Sequence record: MT446387.1
DNA from: Escherichia phage TH09
Length of the DNA: 64,000 nt
Strand: one strand, 5' to 3'
A program made the translations under genes and the position numbers. Under the pieces are notes generated by a model. That model saw only the letters and a program-made list of their open reading frames with translations, did not search any database and was not told where the DNA came from. This document shows, piece after piece, positions 4,402-63,783 of the stretch. How positions within the stretch are numbered: the stretch's first letter is position 1; each line of letters begins with the position of its first letter.

Positions 4402-4409
4402 TATAAATA
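4402..4409 (+). promoter_or_regulatory. candidate late promoter TATAAATA
   Basis: exact TATAAATA about 26 nt upstream of the 4435 ORF, in the rI region. Confidence 0.4.
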
Positions 4410-5340: not shown

Positions 5341-5364
5341 AGTCTCCTTCGGGAGACTTTTTTC
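5341..5364 (+). terminator. intrinsic terminator hairpin (UUCG tetraloop) + U-run
   Basis: agtctcc-ttcg-ggagact followed by tttttt. Confidence 0.6.
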
Positions 5365-5373
5365 ATTTTACCG

Positions 5374-5403
5374 GTTTACTTTCCGTTTGAGTTGTGGTAC
5401 TAT
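5374..5403 (+). promoter_or_regulatory. early promoter (GTTTAC-N17-TACTAT)
   Basis: ccggtttactttccgtttgagttgtggtactat; cassette nearly identical to 45708..45737. Confidence 0.55.
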
Positions 5404-5431
5404 ACAACTATCGAATAAAGAGGAGAACATC

Positions 5432-5620
5432 ATGAAAATTGAAGCACTCAATCAAGAAGGAAATATCTACGTCATCATTAATGGTGATTTTTTCGTCGAC
5501 ATGGATGAAGTTACTAGTGAAGAACTTGTTGAAGTTTTGAAGAAACGTTATAATATGTGTGATGAAGCTGCAACGCATATGGCGTGTGCAATATTCTCTC
5601 TGTCATATGTGGTGGAATAA
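5432..5620 (+). CDS. hypothetical small protein
   Basis: track ORF 5387..5620; start moved to ATG 5432 after SD gaggagaa; the upstream in-frame part is promoter sequence. Confidence 0.45.
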
Positions 5621-8922: not shown

Positions 8923-8945
8923 TTTCAAAAATTTTTCACAAAACT

Positions 8946-8975
8946 GTTTACAAGCATAAAGCTTTATGGTACTAT
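8946..8975 (+). promoter_or_regulatory. early promoter (GTTTACA-N17-TACTAT), cassette type
   Basis: aaaatttttcacaaaactgtttacaagcataaagctttatggtactatacaactatc. Confidence 0.6.
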
Positions 8976-9013
8976 ACAACTATCAAAACAAATGAGTAAA
9001 TTGGAGATACAAA

Positions 9014-10341: not shown

Positions 10342-10644
10342 ATGTTATACTCAAAGGCTCGTGAAATTTACGAAACTAAAATTAAAGAAGCAGTATTTCA
10401 GTTCGCAACAACGATGCGATGGACAAATGATTGGGAATACTCCAAGAATCATAAGAAGCCCTTGGTGACAAGAAAGGCTCATATGTTAGTGTTAATAGAC
10501 CGTGAGCAGATTAAAGCCCGAGAAGCCCTCCAGAATCATAAAAAGGCTGCCTTTGAATGGTTTATGGATAACACTGCTCCTGAGACTAAGAAAGCAGTGA
10601 GTGCGTGGTTCAGTGGAAAAAATTGTGAAAGAAGTTTCTTTTAG
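10342..10644 (+). CDS. hypothetical protein
   Basis: track ORF 10330..10644; ATG 10342 follows tggaggtagtg SD. Confidence 0.4.
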   Translation: MLYSKAREIYETKIKEAVFQFATTMRWTNDWEYSKNHKKPLVTRKAHMLVLIDREQIKAREALQNHKKAAFEWFMDNTAPETKKAVSAWFSGKNCERSFF

Positions 10645-10646
10645 TT

Positions 10647-10699
10647 GTTTACAATACCGTTCCTCTGTGGTACTATACAACTATCAACTACGGAGGAAC
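10647..10699 (+). promoter_or_regulatory. early promoter + stem-loop cassette (PeSL-like); 3' arm carries the SD
   Basis: gtttacaataccGTTCCTCtgtggtactatacaactatcaactacgGAGGAACa; 7-bp arms gttcctc/gaggaac flank the -10. Confidence 0.55.
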
Positions 10700-14735: not shown

Positions 14736-15665
14736 ATGAAAACTCGTAAACATTACATTGATTATTTTGACAGTCTTATTACTAAACATCGTAATTATCA
14801 GATCGGACACAGAGCAGTAATCAATAATATTCTTCGTGATTTCCTTCAATATGTTGGCCAGGAAAATCATATCTGTAAAGATACTCAAAACGCTTATTCT
14901 CATTCGTTAGGTAATTTGCTTGAATGGTTTAAACGTTCTCGTATGTTATCTTCTACTGTAGCTCACGATAACATTAAAAACTTTATGAAGCCGAGCTTTA
15001 TTAAATCTGAGACATCTATAACCGATTTGGTTGAATTTACTATTGTTAACGATGTTAAAAAGACTCATTTGGCTGATTGGTTATCTACCATTCCTGAAAC
15101 TAAATTTGCTGATAAATTTGCTTGTCAATTCAATGACCAAGTGAATATGCTTTTTAAGCATGCTCGCAAACTGTTTACCGCGGGTGATGACCGTACAAAT
15201 ACAGTTCATGTTAAGGACTGGGTTATTGCTGATGAAGTAACACACAAGCCAGGTGGTTCATCAGTATTAATTAATATCCAGGTTCCTTATTATTACTCAC
15301 GTAATCTCGGCACCATGACAGCTAAAGAAATTAATAAGCACAACAAAACTATTCGTTCGTTGTCTTATAAACTCCGCATGATGTTAAAAATTATGGACGT
15401 AGTGGAAATGTATGACGAAACCGAAGATAATGGTTCAATGTTATACAGTTCACGCATTCTAATTAAACTGAAGAACCCTAATACATATAAGACAGTTGTA
15501 AAAGAGCCTAAAGTAGAAAAGGTTGATAATCTGAGTGAAGAACGTGAATATCTCAATGCCCGTTTGATTGAAGTTGAAGCCCAAATTGCAGAACACACCA
15601 AATTGTTAAAAGCTCTTAATGCAAAAGCAAATGGTTTACGTAATGCTATTGAGGTATTGAAATGA
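14736..15665 (+). CDS. hypothetical protein with C-terminal coiled-coil tail
   Basis: 309 aa; C-terminus ...[41 protein letters not shown]. Confidence 0.45.
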   Translation: MKTRKHYIDYFDSLITKHRNYQIGHRAVINNILRDFLQYVGQENHICKDTQNAYSHSLGNLLEWFKRSRMLSSTVAHDNIKNFMKPSFIKSETSITDLVEFTIVNDVKKTHLADWLSTIPETKFADKFACQFNDQVNMLFKHARKLFTAGDDRTNTVHVKDWVIADEVTHKPGGSSVLINIQVPYYYSRNLGTMTAKEINKHNKTIRSLSYKLRMMLKIMDVVEMYDETEDNGSMLYSSRILIKLKNPNTYKTVVKEPKVEKVDNLSEEREYLNARLIEVEAQIAEHTKLLKALNAKANGLRNAIEVLK

Positions 15666-21346: not shown

Positions 21347-21418
21347 TACATTCTGTATATTACCATTCTAAGCTATCGTTCCCTTCTTATCATTCCCTAA
21401 AATAATTTTCACAAAGTT

Positions 21419-21448
21419 GTTTACAACAAGTTCAAACCGTGGTATTAT
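21419..21448 (+). promoter_or_regulatory. early promoter (GTTTACA-N17-TATTAT)
   Basis: aaaataattttcacaaagttgtttacaacaagttcaaaccgtggtattat. Confidence 0.55.
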
Positions 21449-21478
21449 TAACATATGAATTGCCTTTGAGGATTTGAT

Positions 21479-22086: not shown

Positions 22087-22287
22087 ATGAATCCTGAATC
22101 TAAATTATCGCAACGAATTGCTGAAGCTCGTCGTCAGTTCTTTGAAAATATGATAGCCCAAGGTATTGATGACGAAGTTTTTCTAAACTGGTTTTGGAAT
22201 CACAAATATTCAAAATGCTCAGGAGCAATATTAATATCAGCCGCAATGATGTACGAAGGCTGGAAGGGTGCCAAACAGTTTAGCTAA
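22087..22287 (+). CDS. hypothetical small protein
   Basis: 66-aa ORF followed by terminator. Confidence 0.4.
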   Translation: MNPESKLSQRIAEARRQFFENMIAQGIDDEVFLNWFWNHKYSKCSGAILISAAMMYEGWKGAKQFS

Positions 22288-22305
22288 GGGCTTCGGCCCT
22301 TTTTG
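22288..22305 (+). terminator. intrinsic terminator hairpin + U-run
   Basis: gggc-ttcg-gccc followed by ttttt. Confidence 0.65.
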
Positions 22306-22339
22306 GATAATAAAATTTTAACGCAATTGAGGATAATGT

Positions 22340-24722: not shown

Positions 24723-25925
24723 ATGAAAGTATGTATTTTTATGGCTCGAGGTCTTGAAGGTTGTGGTGTAACAAAATTCTCACTCGAGCAACGTGATTGG
24801 TTTATTAAAAATGGTCATGAAGTAACTTTGGTTTATGCTAAAGATAAATCATTTACTCGTAATTGCGCGCATGATTATAAATCATTTTCAATTCCGGTTT
24901 TATTGGCAAAAGAATATGATAAAACACTTAAGCTGGTAAATGATTGTGATATTCTAATTATCAATTCGGTTCCTGCTACTTCGGTTGAAGAAGACACGAT
25001 TAATAACTATAAAAAAATTATTGATAACATTAAACCTTCTGTTCGTGTTGTAGTTTATCAACATGACCATTCTTCTCTTTCTTTGCGTCGAAATTTGGGA
25101 TTAGAAGAAACTGTTCGTCGAGCTGATGTTATTTTTAGCCATTCTGATAATGGTGATTTTAATAAAGTTCTGATGAAAGAGTGGTATCCTGAAACAGTTT
25201 CTCTGTTTGATGATATTGAAGAAGCGCCGACAGTATATAACTTTCAGCCTCCGATGGATATTGCGAAGGTTCGATCAACCTACTGGAAAGATGTTTCTGA
25301 AATTAACATGAATATCAACCGTTGGATTGGTCGTACTACTACATGGAAAGGTTTTTATCAGATGTTTGATTTTCATGAAAAACATCTTAAACCTGCAGGA
25401 CTAAGTACTATTATGGAAGGTCTGGAACGTTCTCCAGCGTTTATTCCTATTAAAGAAAAAGGAATTCCATACGAGTATTATCGTCTTCATCAAGTAGACC
25501 AAATTAAAATTGCTCCTAATTTGCCAACGCAAATTCTTGACCGTTATGTAAATAGCGAAATGCTTGAACGCATGAGTAAATCCGGTTTTGGTTATCAGTT
25601 GAGTAAGTTGGATAAAAAATATCTACAACGTTCTTTAGAATATACTCATCTCGAGCTTGGTGCATGTGGAACAATTCCGGTATTTTGGAAATCTACTGGC
25701 GAAAATTTAAAATTCCGTGTTGATAATAATCCTTTGACCTCGCATGATAGCGGTATCATTTGGTTTGATGAAAATGACATGGAATCAACATTTGAACATA
25801 TTAAAGAACTGTCATCTGACCGAGCTCTTTATGACCGTGAGCGAGAAAAAGCATATGAATTTTTGTATCAGCATCAAGATTCAAGCTTCTGCTTTAAAGA
25901 ACAGTTTGACATTATTACAAAATAA
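24723..25925 (+). CDS. a-gt: DNA alpha-glucosyltransferase
   Basis: 400 aa; N-terminus ...CIFMARGLEGCGVTKFSLEQRDWFIKNGHEVTLVYAKDKSF matches T4 alpha-gt. Confidence 0.85.
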   Translation: MKVCIFMARGLEGCGVTKFSLEQRDWFIKNGHEVTLVYAKDKSFTRNCAHDYKSFSIPVLLAKEYDKTLKLVNDCDILIINSVPATSVEEDTINNYKKIIDNIKPSVRVVVYQHDHSSLSLRRNLGLEETVRRADVIFSHSDNGDFNKVLMKEWYPETVSLFDDIEEAPTVYNFQPPMDIAKVRSTYWKDVSEINMNINRWIGRTTTWKGFYQMFDFHEKHLKPAGLSTIMEGLERSPAFIPIKEKGIPYEYYRLHQVDQIKIAPNLPTQILDRYVNSEMLERMSKSGFGYQLSKLDKKYLQRSLEYTHLELGACGTIPVFWKSTGENLKFRVDNNPLTSHDSGIIWFDENDMESTFEHIKELSSDRALYDREREKAYEFLYQHQDSSFCFKEQFDIITK

Positions 25926-25926
25926 A

Positions 25927-25941
25927 GGGCTTCGGCCCTTT
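25927..25941 (+). terminator. terminator hairpin GGGC-UUCG-GCCC
   Basis: gggcttcggccc followed by ttt. Confidence 0.5.
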
Positions 25942-25966
25942 AGCTTTATACGGAGTTTGATATAAT
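25940..25966 (+). promoter_or_regulatory. candidate middle promoter (AGCTTTA box variant + TATAAT)
   Basis: tttagctttatacggagtttgatataat; same hairpin+box arrangement as upstream of gene 39. Confidence 0.35.
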
Positions 25967-29945: not shown

Positions 29946-30632
29946 ATGAAACTGTCTAAAGATACACTGAATATTTTGAAAAATTTCGCTACTATTAACT
30001 CTGGCATTATGCTTAAATCCGGTCAATTTATTATGACTCGCGCAGTTAATGGTACAACTTATGCAGAAGCAAATATTTCTGACGTTATTGATTTTGATGT
30101 AGCAATTTACGATTTGAACGGTTTTCTCGGTATTCTGTCTCTAGTTAATGATGATGCAGAAATTTCCCAGTCAGAAGATGGAAATATTAAAATTGCTGAT
30201 GCCCGCTCAACAATTTTTTGGCCAGCAGCCGATCCGAGTACAGTAGTTGCTCCTAATAAACCAATTCCATTCCCGGTAGCATCTGTTGTTACTGAAATTA
30301 AAGCTGAAGACCTTCAACAACTGTTGCGTGTATCTCGTGGTCTGCAAATTGATACAATTGCTATCACGGTAAAAGAAGGTAAAATCGTAATTAACGGTTT
30401 TAATAAAGTAGAAGATTCTGCTCTGACCCGTGTTAAATATTCTTTGACTCTTGGTGATTATGATGGTGAAAATACATTTAATTTCATTATCAATATGGCA
30501 AATATGAAAATGCAACCAGGAAATTATAAACTTCTGCTCTGGGCAAAAGGTAAACAAGGTGCTGCTAAATTTGAAGGTGAACATGCGAATTATGTAGTAG
30601 CTCTTGAAGCTGATTCTACCCACGATTTTTAA
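29946..30632 (+). CDS. 45: sliding clamp gp45
   Basis: 228 aa; MKLSKDTLNILKNFATINSGIMLKSGQFIMTRAVNGTTYAEANISD matches T4 gp45. Confidence 0.9.
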   Translation: MKLSKDTLNILKNFATINSGIMLKSGQFIMTRAVNGTTYAEANISDVIDFDVAIYDLNGFLGILSLVNDDAEISQSEDGNIKIADARSTIFWPAADPSTVVAPNKPIPFPVASVVTEIKAEDLQQLLRVSRGLQIDTIAITVKEGKIVINGFNKVEDSALTRVKYSLTLGDYDGENTFNFIINMANMKMQPGNYKLLLWAKGKQGAAKFEGEHANYVVALEADSTHDF

Positions 30633-30636
30633 TAAA

Positions 30637-30651
30637 GGGCTTCGGCCCTTT
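30637..30651 (+). terminator. terminator hairpin GGGC-UUCG-GCCC
   Basis: gggcttcggccc then ttt. Confidence 0.5.
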
Positions 30652-30683
30652 ATAATTTACACTAAAACTTGAATGAGGAAATT

Positions 30684-32209: not shown

Positions 32210-32578
32210 ATGATTGAAATTACTCTTAAAAAACCTGAAGATTTTCTGAAAGTAAAAGAAACTTTGACTCGTATGGGAATTGCTAATAATAAAGATAAAG
32301 TTCTGTATCAGTCCTGTCATATTCTTCAGAAAAAAGGACTATACTATATCGTTCATTTTAAAGAAATGCTTCGTATGGATGGTCGCCAAGTTGAAATGAC
32401 AGAAGAAGATGAAGTTCGTCGTGATTCGATTGCATGGCTATTAGAAGATTGGGGACTAATTGAAATCGCTCCCGGTCAAAGAACTTTTATGAAAGACTTA
32501 ACTAATAACTTCCGAGTTATTTCTTTTAAGCAAAAACATGAATGGAAACTCGTTCCTAAATATACGATTGGTAATTAA
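32210..32578 (+). CDS. regA: translational repressor RegA
   Basis: 122 aa; position between 62 and 43. Confidence 0.8.
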   Translation: MIEITLKKPEDFLKVKETLTRMGIANNKDKVLYQSCHILQKKGLYYIVHFKEMLRMDGRQVEMTEEDEVRRDSIAWLLEDWGLIEIAPGQRTFMKDLTNNFRVISFKQKHEWKLVPKYTIGN

Positions 32579-32582
32579 GCAA

Positions 32583-32600
32583 GGGGCTTCGGCCCCTTAT
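32583..32600 (+). terminator. terminator hairpin GGGGC-UUCG-GCCCC
   Basis: ggggcttcggcccc then ttatttgg. Confidence 0.5.
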
Positions 32601-32620
32601 TTGGAGTATAATATATCAAG

Positions 32621-35388: not shown

Positions 35389-35469
35389 ATACAAGTAATA
35401 TAAATCTATACTTATGAAAAACAGATGATTCTGGACCTTTAGAATTCCCTAAAAAATTTTCACAAAACT

Positions 35470-35499
35470 GTTTACAAGACTGTTCTTCCATGGTACTAT
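35470..35499 (+). promoter_or_regulatory. early promoter cassette (GTTTACA-N17-TACTAT)
   Basis: aaaattttcacaaaactgtttacaagactgttcttccatggtactatacaactatcaact. Confidence 0.6.
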
Positions 35500-35536
35500 A
35501 CAACTATCAACTATTGATACAGATTTGGAGAATAAA

Positions 35537-42044: not shown

Positions 42045-42677
42045 ATGATTTATTATATGCACAAAAATCCACCGTTTAAATACGGTAAATTTCCTGATGC
42101 ACAATGTTATAATATAACGCCTGATGAAAATAACCGTGGATATCTTATTGGCACAATTTTTGTAATTGTTAAAGATAACGAAATCGTTGCCTGGGCAGAT
42201 TTTAAAGGTACAACATATGATGTTAATCCGGTGCCTTTCACATATTACAATTTAATGGATTTGGCATACGATTATAATTGGTTTAATCATGACACTTTGG
42301 CTCATATTGAAGGTGTAGGATTTGATATTTCATATTCGGAATACACTTTAAGCCCTATGAGTCGAGCCCATAAAGAACCTGAATATTTTTCATTTAGGAA
42401 ACGTGTAAACTTTAAACGCAGCACAGAGTATGTCGGTGGAATATTTGTTAAAGATAATCGAATTACTCGCATTATTTATCCTTTGGGCTGTGGTCAAAAA
42501 GATATTGATGTTAATTTAGACTTTACTGAAAACATCATTAATCATATTGCTTCTGTGTATTTTGGTATCGATCACAAAATTGTAATATGTGGATATGAAT
42601 TACCGTTTGAAGAACAGCCTAAAGTAAAAGTTTCTATTGACGATCAAATTTTTAATGCTTTTATGAATAAAGGTTAA
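42045..42677 (+). CDS. hypothetical protein (61.2-like position)
   Basis: 210 aa; C-terminus SIDDQIFNAFMNKG shared with next ORF. Confidence 0.45.
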   Translation: MIYYMHKNPPFKYGKFPDAQCYNITPDENNRGYLIGTIFVIVKDNEIVAWADFKGTTYDVNPVPFTYYNLMDLAYDYNWFNHDTLAHIEGVGFDISYSEYTLSPMSRAHKEPEYFSFRKRVNFKRSTEYVGGIFVKDNRITRIIYPLGCGQKDIDVNLDFTENIINHIASVYFGIDHKIVICGYELPFEEQPKVKVSIDDQIFNAFMNKG

Positions 42678-42683
42678 TATGTA
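42631..42683 (+). repeat. direct repeat copy 1 (about 50 bp) at gene junction
   Basis: tctattgacgatcaaatttttaatgcttttatgaataaaggttaatatg; near-identical copy at 42989..43041. Confidence 0.7.
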
Positions 42684-43035
42684 TAGTTCTGAATTTTCAT
42701 ATTTAAAAATGGAAAAAATTTCATACGATTTTATAGATGAAAAGGTTTATTACAGTTTCCATGAACCGCGTTTTAATAGTGAGGTTGGGTTTATTGTAGT
42801 AAAAGACAATTTCATTTTAAAGATATATTCGGCATTAAAGGATTTTCACTATGAAAATATTAACCTAAAATTTGATAAAGAAAACGTTCGTAATTGTGCA
42901 GTAACAATTACAGGAAATAAAGGTACGTGTGTTATGCTATCTGATGAAATTAATGATTTGCTAAATGATGCAGAAAATATTACTGCGCCATCTATTGATG
43001 ACCAAATTTTTAATGCTTTTATGAATAGAGGTTAA
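42679..43035 (+). CDS. hypothetical protein bracketed by direct repeats
   Basis: 118 aa; C-terminal 14 aa nearly identical to upstream gene. Confidence 0.45.
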   Translation: MYSSEFSYLKMEKISYDFIDEKVYYSFHEPRFNSEVGFIVVKDNFILKIYSALKDFHYENINLKFDKENVRNCAVTITGNKGTCVMLSDEINDLLNDAENITAPSIDDQIFNAFMNRG

Positions 43036-43041
43036 TATGAA
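42989..43041 (+). repeat. direct repeat copy 2
   Basis: tctattgatgaccaaatttttaatgcttttatgaatagaggttaatatg. Confidence 0.7.
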
Positions 43042-44500: not shown

Positions 44501-45019
44501 ATGGCTTACTTTAATGAATGTTCACAACTGATCGAAGGCGCTGATAAAGCTCAAAATGAATACTGGGATATTCTCGGTGATGAAAAAGACCCGCTGCAGG
44601 TTATGCTTGATATGCAGAAATCTCTGCAGGTTCGTTTAGCTAAAGATAAACCTGAATATAACCGTCATCCTGATGATTTGGCTACTGCAGGTGAAGTTGT
44701 TGATTGGCTGCGCAATCAGAAAGATTATATTGATGATGAATTCCGCGAACTTCTGACTTCTCTTGGTGGTATGAGCAATGGTGAAAAAGATGCATCTGCT
44801 GTATGGAAGCCATGGAAAGCTCAACATGGTGAACGTCGTGAAACTCTGATTACTGATTTGTCTCCACAAGACCAGTTGGAAATTAAATTCGAAATGATTG
44901 ATATTCTTCATTTCGTTCTGAACATGTTCCAAGGTCTCGGTCTTACGGCTGAAGAAATCTTTAAACTTTATTATCTGAAAAATGCTGAAAACTTCGCTCG
45001 CCAAGACCGAGGTTACTAA
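44501..45019 (+). CDS. 56: dCTPase/dUTPase gp56
   Basis: 172 aa from ATG 44501 (track ORF begins upstream); MazG-like; matches T4 gp56. Confidence 0.8.
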   Translation: MAYFNECSQLIEGADKAQNEYWDILGDEKDPLQVMLDMQKSLQVRLAKDKPEYNRHPDDLATAGEVVDWLRNQKDYIDDEFRELLTSLGGMSNGEKDASAVWKPWKAQHGERRETLITDLSPQDQLEIKFEMIDILHFVLNMFQGLGLTAEEIFKLYYLKNAENFARQDRGY

Positions 45020-45219
45020 TGGCTCGTTTAAATAAACGACAGCTTAAGAAAGCCCACAAGAAACATATTGACCAGCTATTTAAAAATTATGACAAGGAGC
45101 TCGTATGTGAGCTCTTATCTAATCAGCTTCGTGTGGTTGATTGGGTTGTAGAAGAAGGTCCTGATGAAATTTTTGTCAGTGAAGAAGCTTTAAAATTAAT
45201 TATAGAGCATTCAAAATGA
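45019..45219 (+). CDS. hypothetical small protein
   Basis: 66 aa; TAATG overlap. Confidence 0.4.
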   Translation: MARLNKRQLKKAHKKHIDQLFKNYDKELVCELLSNQLRVVDWVVEEGPDEIFVSEEALKLIIEHSK

Positions 45220-45389
45220 AAATATCCAAAGAAGAATTTATTAGACGACAAAAAGCTTTAATTAATTTACACGAGTGGTATGCTTATCAGCTTAAAGTAG
45301 ATAGCTCTAATATAAATGCTGTAATGGCTTTATATAAACAAATTCATGATGAACACGAATTCCTAGCACAAGTTTTCATTGAAGACTGA
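45216..45389 (+). CDS. hypothetical small protein
   Basis: about 57 aa, ATGA overlap. Confidence 0.3.
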   Translation: MKISKEEFIRRQKALINLHEWYAYQLKVDSSNINAVMALYKQIHDEHEFLAQVFIED

Positions 45390-45397
45390 TATAAATA
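45390..45397 (+). promoter_or_regulatory. late promoter TATAAATA for soc
   Basis: exact TATAAATA about 32 nt upstream of soc ATG; soc is a late capsid gene. Confidence 0.55.
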
Positions 45398-45428
45398 CAC
45401 CTGTAATTAAACAATAAAGGAGTTTATT

Positions 45429-45665
45429 ATGGGTGGTTTCGTTAACATCAAGACCTTTACTCATCCAGCGGGTGAAGGCAAAGAAGTTAAAGGTATGGAA
45501 GTTTCTGTAGCATTTGATGTATATTCAAATGAACACCGTATCGCAGATTCTCATTATCAAATCTTTCCGTCAGAAAAAGCAGCTTATTCTGATGTAGTTT
45601 CCGATGCAGCAACTTGGAAAACTAAGAATGCTGCAATGTTTACGCCTACAGAAATAGGTGGTTAA
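45429..45665 (+). CDS. soc: small outer capsid protein Soc
   Basis: 78 aa; VNIKTF...EGKE..VSVAF..YS..H.I...HYQ.FPSEKAAYS pattern matches T4 Soc. Confidence 0.75.
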   Translation: MGGFVNIKTFTHPAGEGKEVKGMEVSVAFDVYSNEHRIADSHYQIFPSEKAAYSDVVSDAATWKTKNAAMFTPTEIGG

Positions 45666-45673
45666 TAATTCAA

Positions 45674-45697
45674 GGACTCCCGAAGGAGTCCTTTTTT
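45674..45697 (+). terminator. intrinsic terminator hairpin + U-run
   Basis: ggactcc-cgaa-ggagtcc followed by tttttt. Confidence 0.65.
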
Positions 45698-45707
45698 CAT
45701 TTTACCG

Positions 45708-45737
45708 GTTTACTTTCCAAAATGAGTATGGTATAAT
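45708..45737 (+). promoter_or_regulatory. early promoter (GTTTACT-N17-TATAAT)
   Basis: ttttaccggtttactttccaaaatgagtatggtataat; cassette nearly identical to 5374..5403. Confidence 0.55.
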
Positions 45738-45763
45738 AGAATTATCTTATAGAGGAGAGCACT

Positions 45764-45970
45764 ATGTTAAATCGCTGGATTAAACCAAATGAAGATTTAG
45801 ATATTATCATTTCACGGCATGTAATGAAAAAATATGAACTGCAGCCATGGTCTACAGAAGTTGTTGTGCATTCATTTATGATGTACGCAGATGGTTCTGT
45901 CGAATTTAATGCAGAGATTCGATATGATTATGGCGAGAAGCAAGTCGAATTCAAAAGAGGCTTTTTGTAA
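45764..45970 (+). CDS. hypothetical small protein
   Basis: 68 aa; SD gaggagag. Confidence 0.45.
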   Translation: MLNRWIKPNEDLDIIISRHVMKKYELQPWSTEVVVHSFMMYADGSVEFNAEIRYDYGEKQVEFKRGFL

Positions 45971-47809: not shown

Positions 47810-47839
47810 GTTTACTTTCCTTTCTAACGATGATATGAT
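47810..47839 (+). promoter_or_regulatory. early promoter (GTTTACT-N17-TATGAT)
   Basis: caaaaagttgtttactttcctttctaacgatgatatgat; downstream 7-bp inverted repeat tgatagc/gctatca spans the SD. Confidence 0.5.
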
Positions 47840-54037: not shown

Positions 54038-54066
54038 TTTACAAACTCTTGGGACCAGAGTATAAT
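54037..54066 (+). promoter_or_regulatory. early promoter (GTTTACA-N17-TATAAT) inside inverted repeat
   Basis: gtttacaaactcttGGGACCagagtataatGGTCCtg. Confidence 0.5.
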
Positions 54067-54109
54067 GGTCCTGCGGAGTATAAATCTTAACAACAAAGAG
54101 AGAAAAATT

Positions 54110-54583
54110 ATGATTACTATCGGTGAAATTAAGCGTGTATCGTCTGCATCTCGTTCTAAAGCTGCAGGTCGTCTAGTTGAAGTGGTAGGACTTCGTACTA
54201 ATGGTACTGGTCGTGTTAAAGAAGTTAAAGTTCGAATCATTCCTAGTTCTGGAAAAACTGAAACTCAGTACGCTTACGTAAGTCCTAAATTTCTGGAAAC
54301 TCGTGTTAGCTCTCATTTTGCTTCTGTTGAAGAAGTTGAATCCACTGAGTCTAATACACAATTTAAATGGGCGTTGTGTAAAGGCGTTGAATTTGTAACT
54401 GATGAAGAATTCGATTATATTGATGATTTCGCTGGTCCAAGTAAAACTGATAGGATGTGTGGCTTCATCACAGACCAATGGGTTGAAGATGGTAAAAAGC
54501 TATACAATATTGTATTTTTAGGTGACTTCCGGGTTGTTGAAGAATCTGAAATCACTCGTTATGCTTCTCCTCGTAAAGCTTAA
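54110..54583 (+). CDS. hypothetical protein, paralog 2 of tandem trio
   Basis: track ORF 54065..54583; ATG 54110; SRSKAAGRLVEVVGL and CGFITDQWVEDGKKLYNIVFLGDFRVVEESEI. Confidence 0.45.
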   Translation: MITIGEIKRVSSASRSKAAGRLVEVVGLRTNGTGRVKEVKVRIIPSSGKTETQYAYVSPKFLETRVSSHFASVEEVESTESNTQFKWALCKGVEFVTDEEFDYIDDFAGPSKTDRMCGFITDQWVEDGKKLYNIVFLGDFRVVEESEITRYASPRKA

Positions 54584-54592
54584 GGAATTATT

Positions 54593-55012
54593 ATGAATAT
54601 TGTAAATCTCTCTACTGGTGATTACGTATATGTATCCGTTGCTTCTCGTTCTAAAGTTGCAGGAAAGCTGGTTGAAGTTCTTTCTGTAAGTGATCCAGTT
54701 TTTGGTCGTAACGAGGTTAAAGTTCGTGACGCTGATGGTAACATTGGTTATGTCTCAAGTCAGTTCATTGAGCCAGAAGAAAGCGCATTTAAATGGAAAC
54801 TTTGTTCTTCAGTTTTAGTTGTAAAAGACCATAAATTCACAATTGCGGCGGCAACAGATGGAACTCCATGGACAACGAATCAAGTCGCTGGTTTTATTTC
54901 GGACCGTTGGGTAGAAGATGGTGTCAAGCTCTACAATATTGTTTTTGCAGGCCAGTTCATGGTAGTTCCTGAATTCCAAATTAAAAAATGGTGCGAAGCA
55001 GCTTTAGCATAA
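54593..55012 (+). CDS. hypothetical protein, paralog 3 of tandem trio
   Basis: 139 aa; SRSKVAGKLVEVLSV and AGFISDRWVEDGVKLYNIVFAGQFMVVPEFQI. Confidence 0.45.
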   Translation: MNIVNLSTGDYVYVSVASRSKVAGKLVEVLSVSDPVFGRNEVKVRDADGNIGYVSSQFIEPEESAFKWKLCSSVLVVKDHKFTIAAATDGTPWTTNQVAGFISDRWVEDGVKLYNIVFAGQFMVVPEFQIKKWCEAALA

Positions 55013-55046
55013 ATTTGCATAAAGTTTAAAATTTTTTCATAAAACT

Positions 55047-55095
55047 ATATACATCAGTAGTTGATTATGGTACTATATCAATATCAACTACTGAT
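55047..55095 (+). promoter_or_regulatory. early promoter cassette with perfect 13-bp inverted repeat around -10
   Basis: ATCAGTAGTTGATtatggtactatatcaatATCAACTACTGAT then ttggagaataaaatg. Confidence 0.5.
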
Positions 55096-56224: not shown

Positions 56225-56596
56225 ATGTTTAAAATCGGTAAGAAATATCGTATTCGCGAAGGCGAAGAAAAGAAATATCTAATGTCTGCTATTTATAGGA
56301 ATGGTTCTATTAATGCTGTAATATCTACAAGCGAATTTATCGTTGAAGATATGAAAGGTCATAATGTTACAATGATTAGTACAGCATCTGGAAATGATGG
56401 AAAAATTCTTCACAGCTTTCAGAGTAATGTTCTAATTTATGATGAAGAATTTGACTTCTTCGAAGAAGTTACAGAAGATTTTGATTTTGGATGCACCATC
56501 ACTATGAAATCTGGTGACCCTCTTTCTTTTACAGTTAAAGATGAAAGAAGTCGCTTGAGAATTATTAGTCTTCTTCAAGCCATTAAATTTGAGTGA
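56225..56596 (+). CDS. hypothetical protein
   Basis: track ORF 56219..56596; ATG 56225. Confidence 0.4.
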   Translation: MFKIGKKYRIREGEEKKYLMSAIYRNGSINAVISTSEFIVEDMKGHNVTMISTASGNDGKILHSFQSNVLIYDEEFDFFEEVTEDFDFGCTITMKSGDPLSFTVKDERSRLRIISLLQAIKFE

Positions 56597-56600
56597 AATT

Positions 56601-56861
56601 ATGAAATATGTTAATCGTTCTATCGCAGCATTAGTATTAGCAGTATCTTTAGTAGGATGTACTGATGCTGATAATGCAACCAAAATTTTGTCTTCAAGCG
56701 GTTTTACTAATATTGAAATCACTGGATATAATTGGTTCGGTTGCTCTGAAAATGATTTCCAACATACTGGATTTCGTGCTATTGGACCTACCGGGCAGAA
56801 AGTAGAAGGAACAGTATGTTCTGGTCTATTCTTCAAGGATTCGACTATCCGTTTTAAATAA
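56601..56861 (+). CDS. lipoprotein
   Basis: track ORF 56589..56861; ATG 56601; signal peptide with lipobox LVGC. Confidence 0.4.
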   Translation: MKYVNRSIAALVLAVSLVGCTDADNATKILSSSGFTNIEITGYNWFGCSENDFQHTGFRAIGPTGQKVEGTVCSGLFFKDSTIRFK

Positions 56862-56862
56862 A

Positions 56863-56878
56863 AGGCCTTCGGGCCTTT
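56863..56878 (+). terminator. terminator hairpin GGCC-UUCG-GGCC
   Basis: aggccttcgggcct then tt. Confidence 0.5.
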
Positions 56879-56903
56879 AGCTTTATGATTACCGGAGTAT
56901 AAT
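56877..56903 (+). promoter_or_regulatory. candidate middle promoter (AGCTTTA box variant + TATAAT)
   Basis: tttagctttatgattaccggagtataat upstream of gene 39. Confidence 0.35.
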
Positions 56904-56927: not shown

Positions 56928-58748
56928 GTGATGATTAAGAATGAAATTAAAATTCTGAGCGATATTGAACATATCAAAAAGCGTAGCGGCATGTACATTG
57001 GTTCTTCTGCTAATGAAATGCATGAGCGCTTTCTGTTTGGTAAATGGGAAAGTGTTCAGTATGTACCTGGTCTTGTTAAGCTTATTGATGAAATTATCGA
57101 TAACTCAGTAGATGAAGGTATTCGTACTAAGTTTAAATTCGCAAATAAAATTAATGTTACTATTAAAAACAATCAAGTAACAGTTGAAGATAACGGTCGC
57201 GGTATTCCACAAGCGATGGTTAAAACACCTACTGGTGAAGAAATTCCTGGTCCAGTTGCTGCTTGGACTATTCCAAAAGCGGGTGGTAACTTCGGTGATG
57301 ATAAAGAACGCGTCACCGGTGGTATGAATGGTGTTGGTTCTAGTTTGACAAACATTTTTTCTGTGATGTTTGTTGGTGAAACTGGCGATGGTCAAAATAA
57401 TATTGTAGTTCGTTGTTCAAATGGCATGGAAAATAAATCCTGGGAAACTATTCCTGGAAAATGGAAAGGAACTCGTGTTACTTTCATTCCAGATTTTATG
57501 TCATTTGAAACTAATGAGCTGTCCCAAGTTTATCTTGACATTACACTGGATCGTCTCCAGACACTTGCAGTAGTTTATCCTGATATTCAATTTACCTTTA
57601 ATGGTAAAAAGGTTCAGGGCAATTTTAAGAAATATGCACGACAGTATGATGAACATGCTATTGTTCAAGAACAAGAAAATTGTTCTATTGCGGTTGGTCG
57701 TTCACCGGATGGATTTCGCCAATTAACTTATGTGAATAACATTCACACTAAGAATGGTGGCCATCACATTGACTGTGTTATGGATGATATTTGTGAAGAC
57801 CTTATTCCACAAATCAAACGTAAGTTCAAAATTGATGTAACTAAAGCACGTGTCAAAGAATGTTTGACTATCGTTATGTTTGTCCGTGATATGAAAAACA
57901 TGCGATTTGATTCTCAAACTAAAGAGCGTTTGACTTCTCCATTTGGTGAAATCCGTAGTCATATTCAACTTGACGCTAAAAAGATTTCACGCGCTATTCT
58001 AAATAATGAAGCAATTCTGATGCCAATTATTGAAGCTGCACTAGCTCGTAAATTGGCAGCAGAAAAAGCAGCTGAAACTAAAGCAGCTAAAAAGGCTTCT
58101 AAGGCAAAGGTTCATAAACATATTAAAGCTAATCTGTGCGGTAAAGATGCTGATACTACTCTTTTCTTGACTGAGGGTGATTCTGCTATCGGATATCTTA
58201 TTGATGTTCGTGATAAAGAACTTCATGGTGGTTATCCATTGCGTGGTAAAGTTCTCAACAGTTGGGGTATGTCATATGCTGATATGCTTAAAAACAAAGA
58301 ACTATTTGATATTTGCGCAATCACTGGATTAGTTCTTGGTGAAAAAGCTGAAAACTTGAATTATCATAATATTGCTATTATGACTGATGCTGACCATGAT
58401 GGTCTAGGAAGCATTTATCCTTCTCTGCTCGGGTTTTTTAGTAATTGGCCAGAATTGTTTGAGCAAGGACGAATTCGCTTTGTCAAAACTCCTGTAATCA
58501 TCGCTCAGGTCGGTAAAAAACAAGAATGGTTTTATACAGTCGCTGAATATGAGAGTGCCAAAGATGCTCTACCTAAACATAGCATCCGTTATATTAAAGG
58601 ACTTGGCTCTTTGGAAAAATCTGAATATCGTGAAATGATTCAAAATCCAGTATATGATGTTGTTAAACTTCCTGAGAACTGGAAAGAGCTTTTTGAAATG
58701 CTCATGGGAGATAATGCTGACCTTCGTAAAGAATGGATGAGCCAGTAG
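56928..58748 (+). CDS. 39: DNA topoisomerase II large subunit, uninterrupted (gp39 including the part encoded by gene 60 in T4)
   Basis: 606 aa continuous ORF; GHKL ATPase motif EDNGRGIP; TOPRIM-like C-terminal region. Confidence 0.85.
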   Translation: MMIKNEIKILSDIEHIKKRSGMYIGSSANEMHERFLFGKWESVQYVPGLVKLIDEIIDNSVDEGIRTKFKFANKINVTIKNNQVTVEDNGRGIPQAMVKTPTGEEIPGPVAAWTIPKAGGNFGDDKERVTGGMNGVGSSLTNIFSVMFVGETGDGQNNIVVRCSNGMENKSWETIPGKWKGTRVTFIPDFMSFETNELSQVYLDITLDRLQTLAVVYPDIQFTFNGKKVQGNFKKYARQYDEHAIVQEQENCSIAVGRSPDGFRQLTYVNNIHTKNGGHHIDCVMDDICEDLIPQIKRKFKIDVTKARVKECLTIVMFVRDMKNMRFDSQTKERLTSPFGEIRSHIQLDAKKISRAILNNEAILMPIIEAALARKLAAEKAAETKAAKKASKAKVHKHIKANLCGKDADTTLFLTEGDSAIGYLIDVRDKELHGGYPLRGKVLNSWGMSYADMLKNKELFDICAITGLVLGEKAENLNYHNIAIMTDADHDGLGSIYPSLLGFFSNWPELFEQGRIRFVKTPVIIAQVGKKQEWFYTVAEYESAKDALPKHSIRYIKGLGSLEKSEYREMIQNPVYDVVKLPENWKELFEMLMGDNADLRKEWMSQ

Positions 58749-58777
58749 TTTACTTTACCACAAGGATGTGGTATAAT
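58748..58777 (+). promoter_or_regulatory. early promoter (GTTTACT-N17-TATAAT)
   Basis: agtttactttaccacaaggatgtggtataat; 31/32 identical to 13624..13653. Confidence 0.55.
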
Positions 58778-58802
58778 TAATTGGGCAAATGAGGATATTG
58801 AA

Positions 58803-59006
58803 ATGAAATCATATAGAGTAAATTTAGAACTTTTTGATAAAGCAGTTCATCGAGAATATAGAATCATTCAACGCTTTTTCGATATGGGAGAAGCCGAAGA
58901 ATTTAAAAACCGCTTTAAGGATATTAGAGATAAAATTCAATCCGACACTGCAACTAAAGATGAACTACTAGAAGTTGCTGAAGTTATTAAGCGTAATATG
59001 AATTAA
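58803..59006 (+). CDS. hypothetical small protein
   Basis: 67 aa. Confidence 0.4.
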
Positions 59007-62172: not shown

Positions 62173-62367
62173 ATGTTAGGTTATCAAGCACGAGTAAAAG
62201 AAGAATACGATCAATTAATGCTCAAAATTAATGCACTGAGCAAATTTTTAGAAAGCACAAAGTTTCTAACGATTAATGAAGTCGAGCAAGAATTACTGCT
62301 TTCGCAGTTTATTTCAATGAAATCTTACGCAGATTGTTTAGAGAAAAGAATTGCACAATTCAAATAA
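62173..62367 (+). CDS. hypothetical small protein
   Basis: 64 aa. Confidence 0.4.
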   Translation: MLGYQARVKEEYDQLMLKINALSKFLESTKFLTINEVEQELLLSQFISMKSYADCLEKRIAQFK

Positions 62368-62373
62368 AGTAAA

Positions 62374-62394
62374 GGGCTTCGGCCCTTTTGTTTT
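62374..62394 (+). terminator. intrinsic terminator hairpin + U-run
   Basis: gggc-ttcg-gccc followed by ttttgtttt. Confidence 0.6.
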
Positions 62395-62431
62395 AAGAGA
62401 AATTATGATTCCGACATAAAGGAAAGTTTAA

Positions 62432-62989
62432 ATGCAGAAAACGAATCCGGGTTTACAGAGACTATTTCAGATTCCGACATTTACCCTATCGAACAATGAC
62501 TTGACTAGTGAAATGAAGGTCAAAATTGCTGATACAGCAAGATACTCTTTAAAACAAAATCCTAATCAGGATAAAGCAGAAGTCATCGAAAGATGCCGTA
62601 TCGCTGTGTATGCAGAGTTTTTTGTAGCAGATTGGCTGAGCGGGTATGTTAACAAAGGCCAAGAGGATGTTAATGACCCGTATACATACGCATGGGATGT
62701 ATTGGCGCATCCAAGATATTGCGGGCTTCGTGTAGAAGTTAAGACACACCAAACTGACTCACGTTGGATTTCGGTAACAACTGGATGCAGCGGAGAATAT
62801 CCATACGGTTCTGGAATAAATCTAGGGCCCATTCTGAATCACCAAGTCGCTGACTGTATAATTATATTCAACACTAAAGAAATTCATCCAGGTGTCATCC
62901 AATACACTCCGAAGTTCATCGGTGATAGAGAAGACCTTCGTAAAGTTGTAAGAAAAAGCAACTACAACGGATGGTATCTTTCCATTTAA
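62432..62989 (+). CDS. denB: endonuclease IV DenB (by position and size)
   Basis: 185 aa downstream of rIIB. Confidence 0.55.
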   Translation: MQKTNPGLQRLFQIPTFTLSNNDLTSEMKVKIADTARYSLKQNPNQDKAEVIERCRIAVYAEFFVADWLSGYVNKGQEDVNDPYTYAWDVLAHPRYCGLRVEVKTHQTDSRWISVTTGCSGEYPYGSGINLGPILNHQVADCIIIFNTKEIHPGVIQYTPKFIGDREDLRKVVRKSNYNGWYLSI

Positions 62990-63015
62990 AAATTTTCACA
63001 AAACGGTTTACATAC

Positions 63016-63045
63016 CACAAGGACTGTGGTACTATACAACTATCA
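63016..63045 (+). promoter_or_regulatory. early promoter cassette (GTTTACA-N17-TACTAT)
   Basis: aaaaattttcacaaaacggtttacataccacaaggactgtggtactatacaactatcaact. Confidence 0.55.
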
Positions 63046-63069
63046 ACTGATACGGATTTGGAGAATAAA

Positions 63070-63545: not shown

Positions 63546-63730
63546 GTTCATTGTGGTGGTGTTTTATTTGGTTAATTAGTATTCCATTAATTTGTTTAAC
63601 ATTTACTTTTGTGATGAGGTTATTATGAAAATTTTGAATTCTGTACTTATTGCTTGTGCATGGTGGGTTGCGCAAGTTTCAGCGGTAGTAGTTGGTATTC
63701 ACATTTATTACGAATATTTTTAAAAAAGTT

Positions 63731-63783
63731 GTTTACAAGACTGTTCCTCTGTGGTACTATTACCCTATCAACTACGGAGGAAC
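63731..63783 (+). promoter_or_regulatory. early promoter + stem-loop cassette (same type as 10647..10699)
   Basis: gtttacaagactGTTCCTCtgtggtactattaccctatcaactacgGAGGAACag. Confidence 0.55.

Follow-up and report, generated by a model that had tools for sequence, protein, structure and literature searches.

Why should a terminator hairpin, its U-run and an early promoter stand together at two loci 40 kb apart in the same phage genome? The question arises in a 64,000-nt stretch of Escherichia phage TH09 (record MT446387.1), which was analysed as a whole and is referred to here as the window. An earlier note on this DNA had described the pair as a duplicated cassette and had proposed either a transposable regulatory module or selection on the RNA structure as its cause. 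The window is from a Tequatrovirus (T4-like) genome in the early, counter-clockwise orientation, and the two copies occupy short intergenic gaps: site A, 96 nt between rI.-1 and mobD.5 (T4 counterpart 58723-58818), and site B, 98 nt between soc and mrh.2 (T4 counterpart 15233-15330). We consider it likely, with a probability of roughly 85%, that both are compact terminator/early-promoter cassettes of T4-like phages, of the kind published as PeSLs (promoter-early stem-loops). The finding is already known biology, correctly recognised, and its interest is low; neither copy departs from what is known of the cassette. Minor new details are a 27-nt identity between the copies, probably a product of exchange over a short patch, a terminator loop that is flipped, and the siting of both cassettes where a late unit meets early genes. 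The evidence on the cassettes themselves comprises their sequence anatomy, their fold energies, their positional conservation across genera and the compensatory changes in their stems; termination and initiation in vivo at A and B are what this anatomy would predict.

Anatomy of the two cassettes

The features of both sites are collected in Table 1. The rI.-1 protein encoded ahead of site A is 100% identical to T4 rI.-1. Folding gave -10.8 kcal/mol (z -3.35) for the hairpin of site A and -14.2 kcal/mol (z -4.47) for that of site B. With an intrinsic terminator defined as a GC-rich stem of at least 5 bp, a loop of 3-8 nt and at least five U directly after, sites A and B present stems of 7 and 9 bp with 4-5 GC pairs, a tetraloop and T6. 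Transcription from the mobD.5 promoter is predicted to start near 5410, judging from the standard distance between -10 and +1, and the predicted start of the mrh.2 promoter lies near 45744. The record of phage fPS-65, a relative, annotates a 'terminator' and a 'predicted early promoter' at site A, exactly the combination of terminator hairpin, U-run and early promoter that had been read from the letters. An Rfam search returned no match at site A and at site B only isrD, with 16 bits vs a gathering score of 37 (E = 0.77). On its + strand, the window has only five strong terminators whose T-run is five or longer, and just two of them, A and B, have a -35 hexamer as close as 17 nt past the stem.

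Table 1 Coordinates of the cassette features and their neighbours in the window
Feature	Position	Strand	Remarks
Late-promoter box TATAAATA between tk and rI.1	4402..4409	+	Heads the rI.1-rI-rI.-1 late unit closed by A
rI.-1, 128 aa	4950..5336	+	Last gene 5' of cassette A; ORF listing, T4 annotation
Cassette A terminator hairpin AGTCTCC-TTCG-GGAGACT, C(UUCG)G tetraloop	5341..5358	+	Fold and terminator scan
27-nt exact repeat, copy A: T-run, CATTTTACCG linker, GTTTACTTTCC	5358..5384	+	
-35 hexamer TTTACT, mobD.5 early promoter	5375..5380	+	Matches consensus TTTACW N17 TAYWAT (PMC4122927)
-10 hexamer TACTAT after TGG (extended -10)	5398..5403	+	
Shine-Dalgarno GAGGAG and ATG of mobD.5	5420..5434	+	Gene 5432-5620, 62 aa
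Late-promoter box TATAAATA just 5' of soc	45390..45397	+	
soc, RB69-like allele of 78 aa, closed by cassette B	45429..45665	+	Annotated RB69-like Soc in wV7
Cassette B terminator hairpin (AA)GGACTCC-CGAA-GGAGTCC(TT), arms AAGGACTCC / GGAGTCCTT	45672..45693	+	
27-nt exact repeat, copy B	45692..45718	+	
-35 hexamer TTTACT, mrh.2 early promoter	45709..45714	+	
-10 hexamer TATAAT after TGG	45732..45737	+	Promoter repeat family D7
Shine-Dalgarno GAGGAG and ATG of mrh.2	45752..45766	+	Gene 45764-45970, 68 aa

Extent of the repeat

What the two sites have in common letter for letter is the 27-mer TTTTTTCATTTTACCGGTTTACTTTCC, present in exactly two exact copies in the window. No third copy was found there with three mismatches allowed or with a relaxed pattern, and 100 shuffles yielded no match. 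The distance from the start of the T-run to the -35 hexamer and that from -35 to -10 are 17 nt each at A and B alike. Recurrence of the hairpin, U-run and early promoter at two distant loci with equal spacing, as the earlier note had it, is borne out by this 27-mer and the identical 17/17-nt spacings; its further claim of nearly the same flanking sequence does not hold, as likeness beyond the 27-mer is only family-level. In this phage, the hairpins of A and B agree at 10 of 18 positions (14 of 18 in T4), the low figure being due to a loop at B that is the reverse complement of the loop at A. For the spacer, 4 of 13 positions match in an ungapped comparison, and the -10 boxes agree at four of six.

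A pairwise comparison of the 18 credible early promoters of the window (153 pairs) places this likeness among its peers. Counted from the first base of the -35 hexamer, no other pair is as alike as A and B between -17 and +10 (96% identity vs a mean of 54%, sd 11, or 3.8 sd over the promoter-pair mean), and this lead is confined to that segment; the pair ranks 9th of 153 over the whole cassette and 60th for the core from -35 to -10. The identity in the 27-mer thus exceeds what two independent consensus sites would be expected to share. A and B are not whole duplicates: their hairpins and their -10/leader halves are specific to each locus and fall into different promoter sub-families. At least 60 families of direct repeats were recognised in the window, many of them promoters and CUUCGG hairpins, and two of these include the sites studied here, namely D1, a 59-nt early-promoter repeat with eight copies (site A), and D7 with four copies (site B); further families consist of GGGC-TTCG-GCCC hairpins. 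Members of an early-promoter family of ~59 nt (AAAAATTTTCACAAAACTGTTTACA...TGGTACTATACAACTATCAA) lie at 8928-8986, 10629-10687, 21401-21459, 35452-35510, 55029-55087, 62988-63046 and 63713-63771; pairs such as 13622/58746 share 97% identity over 32 nt, and repeated promoter sequence is the rule in the window, not the exception.

The stretch ahead of the -35 hexamer sets A and B apart from the other 16 early promoters, which carry an upstream A-tract consensus, AAAAATTTTCACAAAACTG, where A and B instead have a hairpin, T6 and CATTTTACCG. The T-run was considered as an UP element and this was rejected, as agreement with the 16-promoter consensus is limited to the T's at -49 to -47 and the A-tracts are absent; it is a weak idea that hairpin-less promoters elsewhere with a T6-CR-T4 stretch partly revive.

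Other repeats in the window are of a different kind. A 49-nt direct repeat (42633-42681 and 42991-43039, 94% identical, 358 nt apart) takes in the ends of two neighbouring small ORFs along with the start codon that follows, and looks like the tandem duplication of a small gene. The adjacent ORFs 54065-54583 and 54593-55012 share coding repeats (54136-54183, 54178-54225 and 54631-54678), and both match the same single region of phage VR5 (L059), which suggests a tandem gene duplication in this lineage.

Hairpin structure and its conservation

The 7-bp stem cores of A and B differ at stem positions 1 and 3, and in each of these two pairs both partners have changed, so that arms differing between the sites still pair, as the earlier note had observed. 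The same pattern extends to a set of 16 cassette hairpins aligned on their loops, in which 92% of cells pair and eight of nine pairs vary on both sides; their covariation score was reached by none of 500 shuffles, and sliding the partner column collapses the pairing. This set was picked with a hairpin filter, which makes the result partly circular. Orthologues anchored on rI.-1 were chosen without such a filter, and a hairpin is present in all five genera that have this boundary. Since the stems of orthologous sites stay paired through two-sided changes and the loops vary freely, selection on the RNA structure, one of the two causes put forward in the earlier note, is a supported reading, with the rI.-1-anchored orthologues as its unbiased evidence.

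The loop of the site B hairpin (45681-45684) illustrates this freedom. T4 and most relatives have TTCG here, of which the CGAA of this phage is the exact reverse complement; in wV7 the loop is the palindromic CTAG. Apparently the loop of this phage was flipped at the DNA level, with the perfect inverted-repeat stem unchanged, at a cost of ~0.9 kcal/mol in the folding model. A 49-nt query is matched at 99% or more by 15 phage records, not all of them over its full length.

A separate family of hairpins of the form AAAGGGC-TTCG-GCCCTTT, with CUUCGG tetraloops, was found at 25919-25948, 30629-30658, 32576-32605, 56856-56885, 62366-62395 and 22286-22318. Most lack a long T-run and may thus act less as strong terminators than as hairpins that stabilise mRNAs or mark their 3' ends.

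The soc boundary

Cassette B coincides with an edge of genome mosaicism. Nucleotide identity of soc to T4 soc is ~55-60%, and at the soc stop codon and the hairpin the identity of the window to T4 leaps from ~55-64% to 90-98% (at least 96% at the hairpin itself). The boundary of the soc allele replacement falls exactly at the cassette B hairpin. Such a replacement or indel boundary was observed at B only and none at site A. The divergent block, 45019-45665, stops at the soc terminator hairpin; it contains, besides the RB69-like soc, the small ORFs 45019-45219 and 45216-45389, like soc.2 and soc.1 of T2, and T4 has the homing endonuclease gene segF in this place.

Distribution in related phages

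A 65-nt query covering site A matched 947 places in 530 phage records, with at most two places per record among the rows listed and totals that fit this maximum, so that a search for further copies in related phages, suggested in the earlier note, brought up no listed record with more than two. Every Tequatrovirus site A sequence examined is identical over the T-run, the linker and the -35 flank, except for one extra T in the T-run of T4. Site B is polymorphic within Tequatrovirus, with the linker alleles AAAT (T4), AAAC, TACT and TACC and with the loops TTCG (most phages), CGAA (this phage and JLBYU22) and CTAG (wV7); the T2 copy is more diverged.

Beyond the genus, the region 3' of rI.-1 in Dhaka-, Gelderland-, Karam-, Jiaoda- and Kagamiyamavirus always holds a GC hairpin, a T-run, GTTTAC(A/T) and TACTAT, in combination with entirely different stems and linker lengths, and a Slopekvirus-like Klebsiella phage has the promoter only at this position. 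A B-type cassette follows soc in C6, VR5 and JS98 (all three Dhakavirus) and in RB69 (Mosigvirus), as well as, within Tequatrovirus, in T2. Because cassettes stand at the same gene boundaries in every Tevenvirinae genus sampled that has the gene pair concerned, we take A and B to be old, positionally fixed elements and not insertions.

These observations bear directly on the transposable regulatory module of the earlier note, taken here as an actively mobile, transposing or recently duplicated element inserted at two loci. The PeSL papers do speak of 'mobile regulatory cassettes', and mini-circles between nearby PeSLs were shown in RB49 and phi1; moreover, one distant T4-like contig has three loci with compact cassettes that are near-identical. 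For the pair in the window, a mobile element is nevertheless highly improbable. Other genera, too, have a cassette in the same position at both loci, its hairpin and -10 region diverged and specific to the locus, and identity between A and B is confined to 27 nt rather than extending over the whole cassette. Among the relatives sampled, neither presence/absence polymorphism nor an empty site nor a target duplication was seen, and of the marks of a mobile insertion (variable location, presence/absence polymorphism, raised copy number) A and B show none. With at most two places per listed record and fixed gene boundaries across genera, the notion of a transposable module is not sustained.

The distant contig (IMG/VR contig 2706796082, 163 kb), read on its minus strand, has cassettes starting at 8166 of L046, 7295 of L058 and 4175 of L078. 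Two of the three are near-identical including the hairpin (AAGGACC-TTCG-GGTCC-TTTTTTCGTTTTAG[A/G]GGTTTACAA), and this contig is a clearer example of a repeated whole cassette than the pair in the window.

Origin of the identical core

If the cassettes are old and fixed in place, the identity of their central 27 nt calls for a separate explanation. Twelve of the 27 positions belong to the T-run and GTTTAC, which leaves 15 freer positions. Across genera, these do not follow the locus. Tequatrovirus A sites agree with Dhakavirus B sites at 22-24 of 27 positions vs only 20 of 27 with Dhakavirus A, and Dhakavirus A agrees at 24 of 27 with a B site of Mosigvirus-like type (L075). All A sites outside Tequatrovirus carry GTTTACATCC or a close variant, and the Tequatrovirus A site carries the B-type GTTTACTTTCC. 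The latter site looks B-like on its -35 side, and Tequatrovirus B has an A-like 'CA' where other B sites have 'CG'. In sum, the central segment fails to track the locus across genera, and the hairpins and -10 regions stay locus-specific.

This failure to follow the locus suggests short gene conversion between cassettes. The 27-nt identity would then be due in part to hard constraint on the T-run and GTTTAC and in part to short-patch recombination or gene conversion, either between the two cassettes or between alleles of them carried by co-infecting phages. We put the odds that a short tract of the central module was exchanged between non-allelic copies, in at least one direction, at about even; the comparison covers ~15 free positions in a handful of genomes, and parallel selection or exchange with unsampled phages could mimic its outcome. 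Such exchange is mechanistically plausible because UvsX-dependent recombination in T4 can use homologies of 3-13 nt (PMC8262927) and the PeSL authors cite patches of <50 bp as sufficient for recombination. The idea from the PeSL work that the cassette acts as a homology patch for recombination fits the data and is supported by them, through a 27-mer that does not follow the locus across genera and a soc replacement that stops right at the B hairpin.

Alternatively, A and B could be independent sites whose 27-nt identity arose from constraint and chance, with no exchange between the loci. T4 early promoters are highly stereotyped (PMC2988021), and the window abounds in repeat families, many of them promoters and CUUCGG hairpins. 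Other promoter pairs are equally or more alike over their cores, for example 13625/58749 (97%), and GTTTACTTTCC is found again at 47811. In addition, a 41-nt site B query in which the A-identical linker was required is covered to at least 80% in only 142 phage records, from which it appears that the identity of A and B is not being maintained. Independence does not account readily for the 10-nt linker CATTTTACCG, which lies outside the 16-promoter consensus and differs in the orthologues of other genera, for a likeness so far above the mean of promoter pairs, or for segment types that cross loci between genera, and we regard it as rather unlikely.

As a further alternative, the 27-mer could bind a specific factor, of phage or host origin, or belong to a functional RNA, and so be more than the tail of a terminator together with the sequence ahead of the promoter. 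The pattern T6-C-R-T4-NNNN-GTTTAC recurs in varied viral contigs, with AGGG in striking excess at NNNN (14 of 75 matches); a correctly spaced -10 box follows in 24 of 61 distinct matches, 14 of which have no abutting hairpin, and the T-rich stretch ahead of -35 may therefore be recognised as an element. However, the T-rich part is imposed by the search pattern itself, the linker varies at site B within Tequatrovirus, the repeat contains neither a MotA box nor a late box, and Rfam gave no family at a meaningful score. A dedicated factor site is very unlikely, and non-allelic exchange of a short tract is the simplest reading.

An exact 22-mer, TTTTTTC(A/G)TTTTAGGGGTTTAC, is present in many unrelated-looking viral contigs with GC contents of 29-46% (L036/L098, L039, L042, L043/L047/L055, L065, L068/L071, L078, L081, L092 and L106). 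It is usually accompanied by a correctly spaced TATAAT-like box, often with no hairpin, and seems to be a widespread variant of the stretch ahead of -35.

Late units and proposed function

The genes upstream of both cassettes belong to late units. For the rI.1-rI-rI.-1 operon, a late promoter between tk and rI.1 has been described (PMC2962797). The box TATAAATA occurs three times in the 64-kb window vs ~10 expected from shuffles. The third copy (56290-56297) is on the - strand, and the only two on the + strand, at 4402 and 45390, stand at the start of precisely those two units that end in A and B.

From this arrangement, transcripts arriving from the upstream late unit, rI.1-rI-rI.-1 at A and soc at B, each with its own late promoter, would end at a GC-rich hairpin that has a stem of 7-9 bp and a tetraloop and is followed by U6. 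A sigma-70 early promoter 17 bases past the stem (GTTTACT, 17-nt spacer, TGG-TAYWAT) would then restart transcription of small early ORFs, from mobD.5 onward and from mrh.2 onward, each with a GAGGAG ribosome site. In this way, the cassette could insulate early genes from heavy neighbouring late transcription while their early expression is retained. Insulation of the downstream early ORFs from late read-through is suggested by the anatomy, and the link to late units amounts to two cases among the five strong terminators. A fuller scheme combines both lines: the module of T-run, linker and -35 would evolve in concert by UvsX-type short-tract conversion across 40 kb, hairpins and -10 halves would remain locus-specific, and the compact form would be a specialised insulator where a late unit on the early strand abuts early genes. 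We offer this combination tentatively, as a possibility that falls somewhat short of even.

The importance of these results beyond annotation is small and consists in placing two more T4-like intergenic regions in the PeSL class. They do provide natural examples of a compensatory change that preserves a terminator stem while the loop flips, of a regulatory cassette at the edge of a gene-replacement mosaic (the soc allele), and of possible non-allelic exchange across <30 nt. Conversion, if true, would support the view that T4-type genomes evolve with conserved regulatory cassettes serving as linkers for recombination.

Comparison with known systems

PeSL cassettes were described in RB49/phi1 and then in T4/PST and KVP40/nt-1 (Arbiol et al. 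2010, PMC2839356; Comeau et al. 2014, PMC4122927). They are composites of a stem-loop and an early promoter, concentrated in plastic regions of the genome, for which termination and promotion were shown and a role as recombination linkers was proposed (PMC2839356, PMC4122927). A and B resemble them in combining an intergenic stem-loop terminator, a sigma-70-type early promoter, a Shine-Dalgarno sequence and a start codon 5' of small ORFs of unknown function. The T4/PST consensus TTTACW N17 TAYWAT fits both A (TTTACT N17 TACTAT) and B (TTTACT N17 TATAAT) (PMC4122927), the stable stem-loop lies just 5' of the promoter, with hairpins ending 17 nt before -35, and copy B stands exactly at a gene-replacement boundary. 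Unlike in RB49/phi1, where the hairpin is usually between or over the promoter boxes, the hairpins of A and B are wholly upstream of -35, and their stems are not of the GGGG/CCCC type of RB49. Nor does AGNA-loop-TCNT, a form that stems of the PST/T4 pair often take, literally fit A (AGTC...GACT) or B (GGAC...GTCC); high stem variability is noted in the same paper (PMC4122927). The genes flanking the two loci, rI.-1/mobD.5 and soc/mrh.2, are not named in the text of the PeSL paper. In contrast to PeSLs that yield mini-circles, A and B are 40 kb apart with essential genes between them, and because these genes span the interval, excision of a mini-circle between A and B could not yield a viable phage.

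Relative to the early promoters of T4 (Hinton 2010, PMC2988021), A and B show the same GTTTAC at -35, the 17-nt spacer, the TGG-extended -10 and the stereotyped GAGGAG leader. They depart from them in the replacement of the A-tract consensus, carried by the other 16 promoters of the window, with the hairpin, T6 and linker.

Hairpins with C(UUCG)G tetraloops are reported both from T4 intercistronic regions and from rho-independent terminators (Tuerk et al. 1988). Cassette hairpins share with them a GC stem, a UUCG loop closed by C-G and a subsequent U-run, and several such hairpins occur in the window; site B differs in its loop, which is CGAA (flipped) here and CTAG in wV7. Finally, the soc boundary is reminiscent of the 'linker' sequences of Botstein and Campbell, short conserved intergenic stretches at which the homology of divergent alleles resumes. 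Unlike those linkers, the linker here would itself be a regulatory element, and exchange has apparently also taken place between non-allelic copies.
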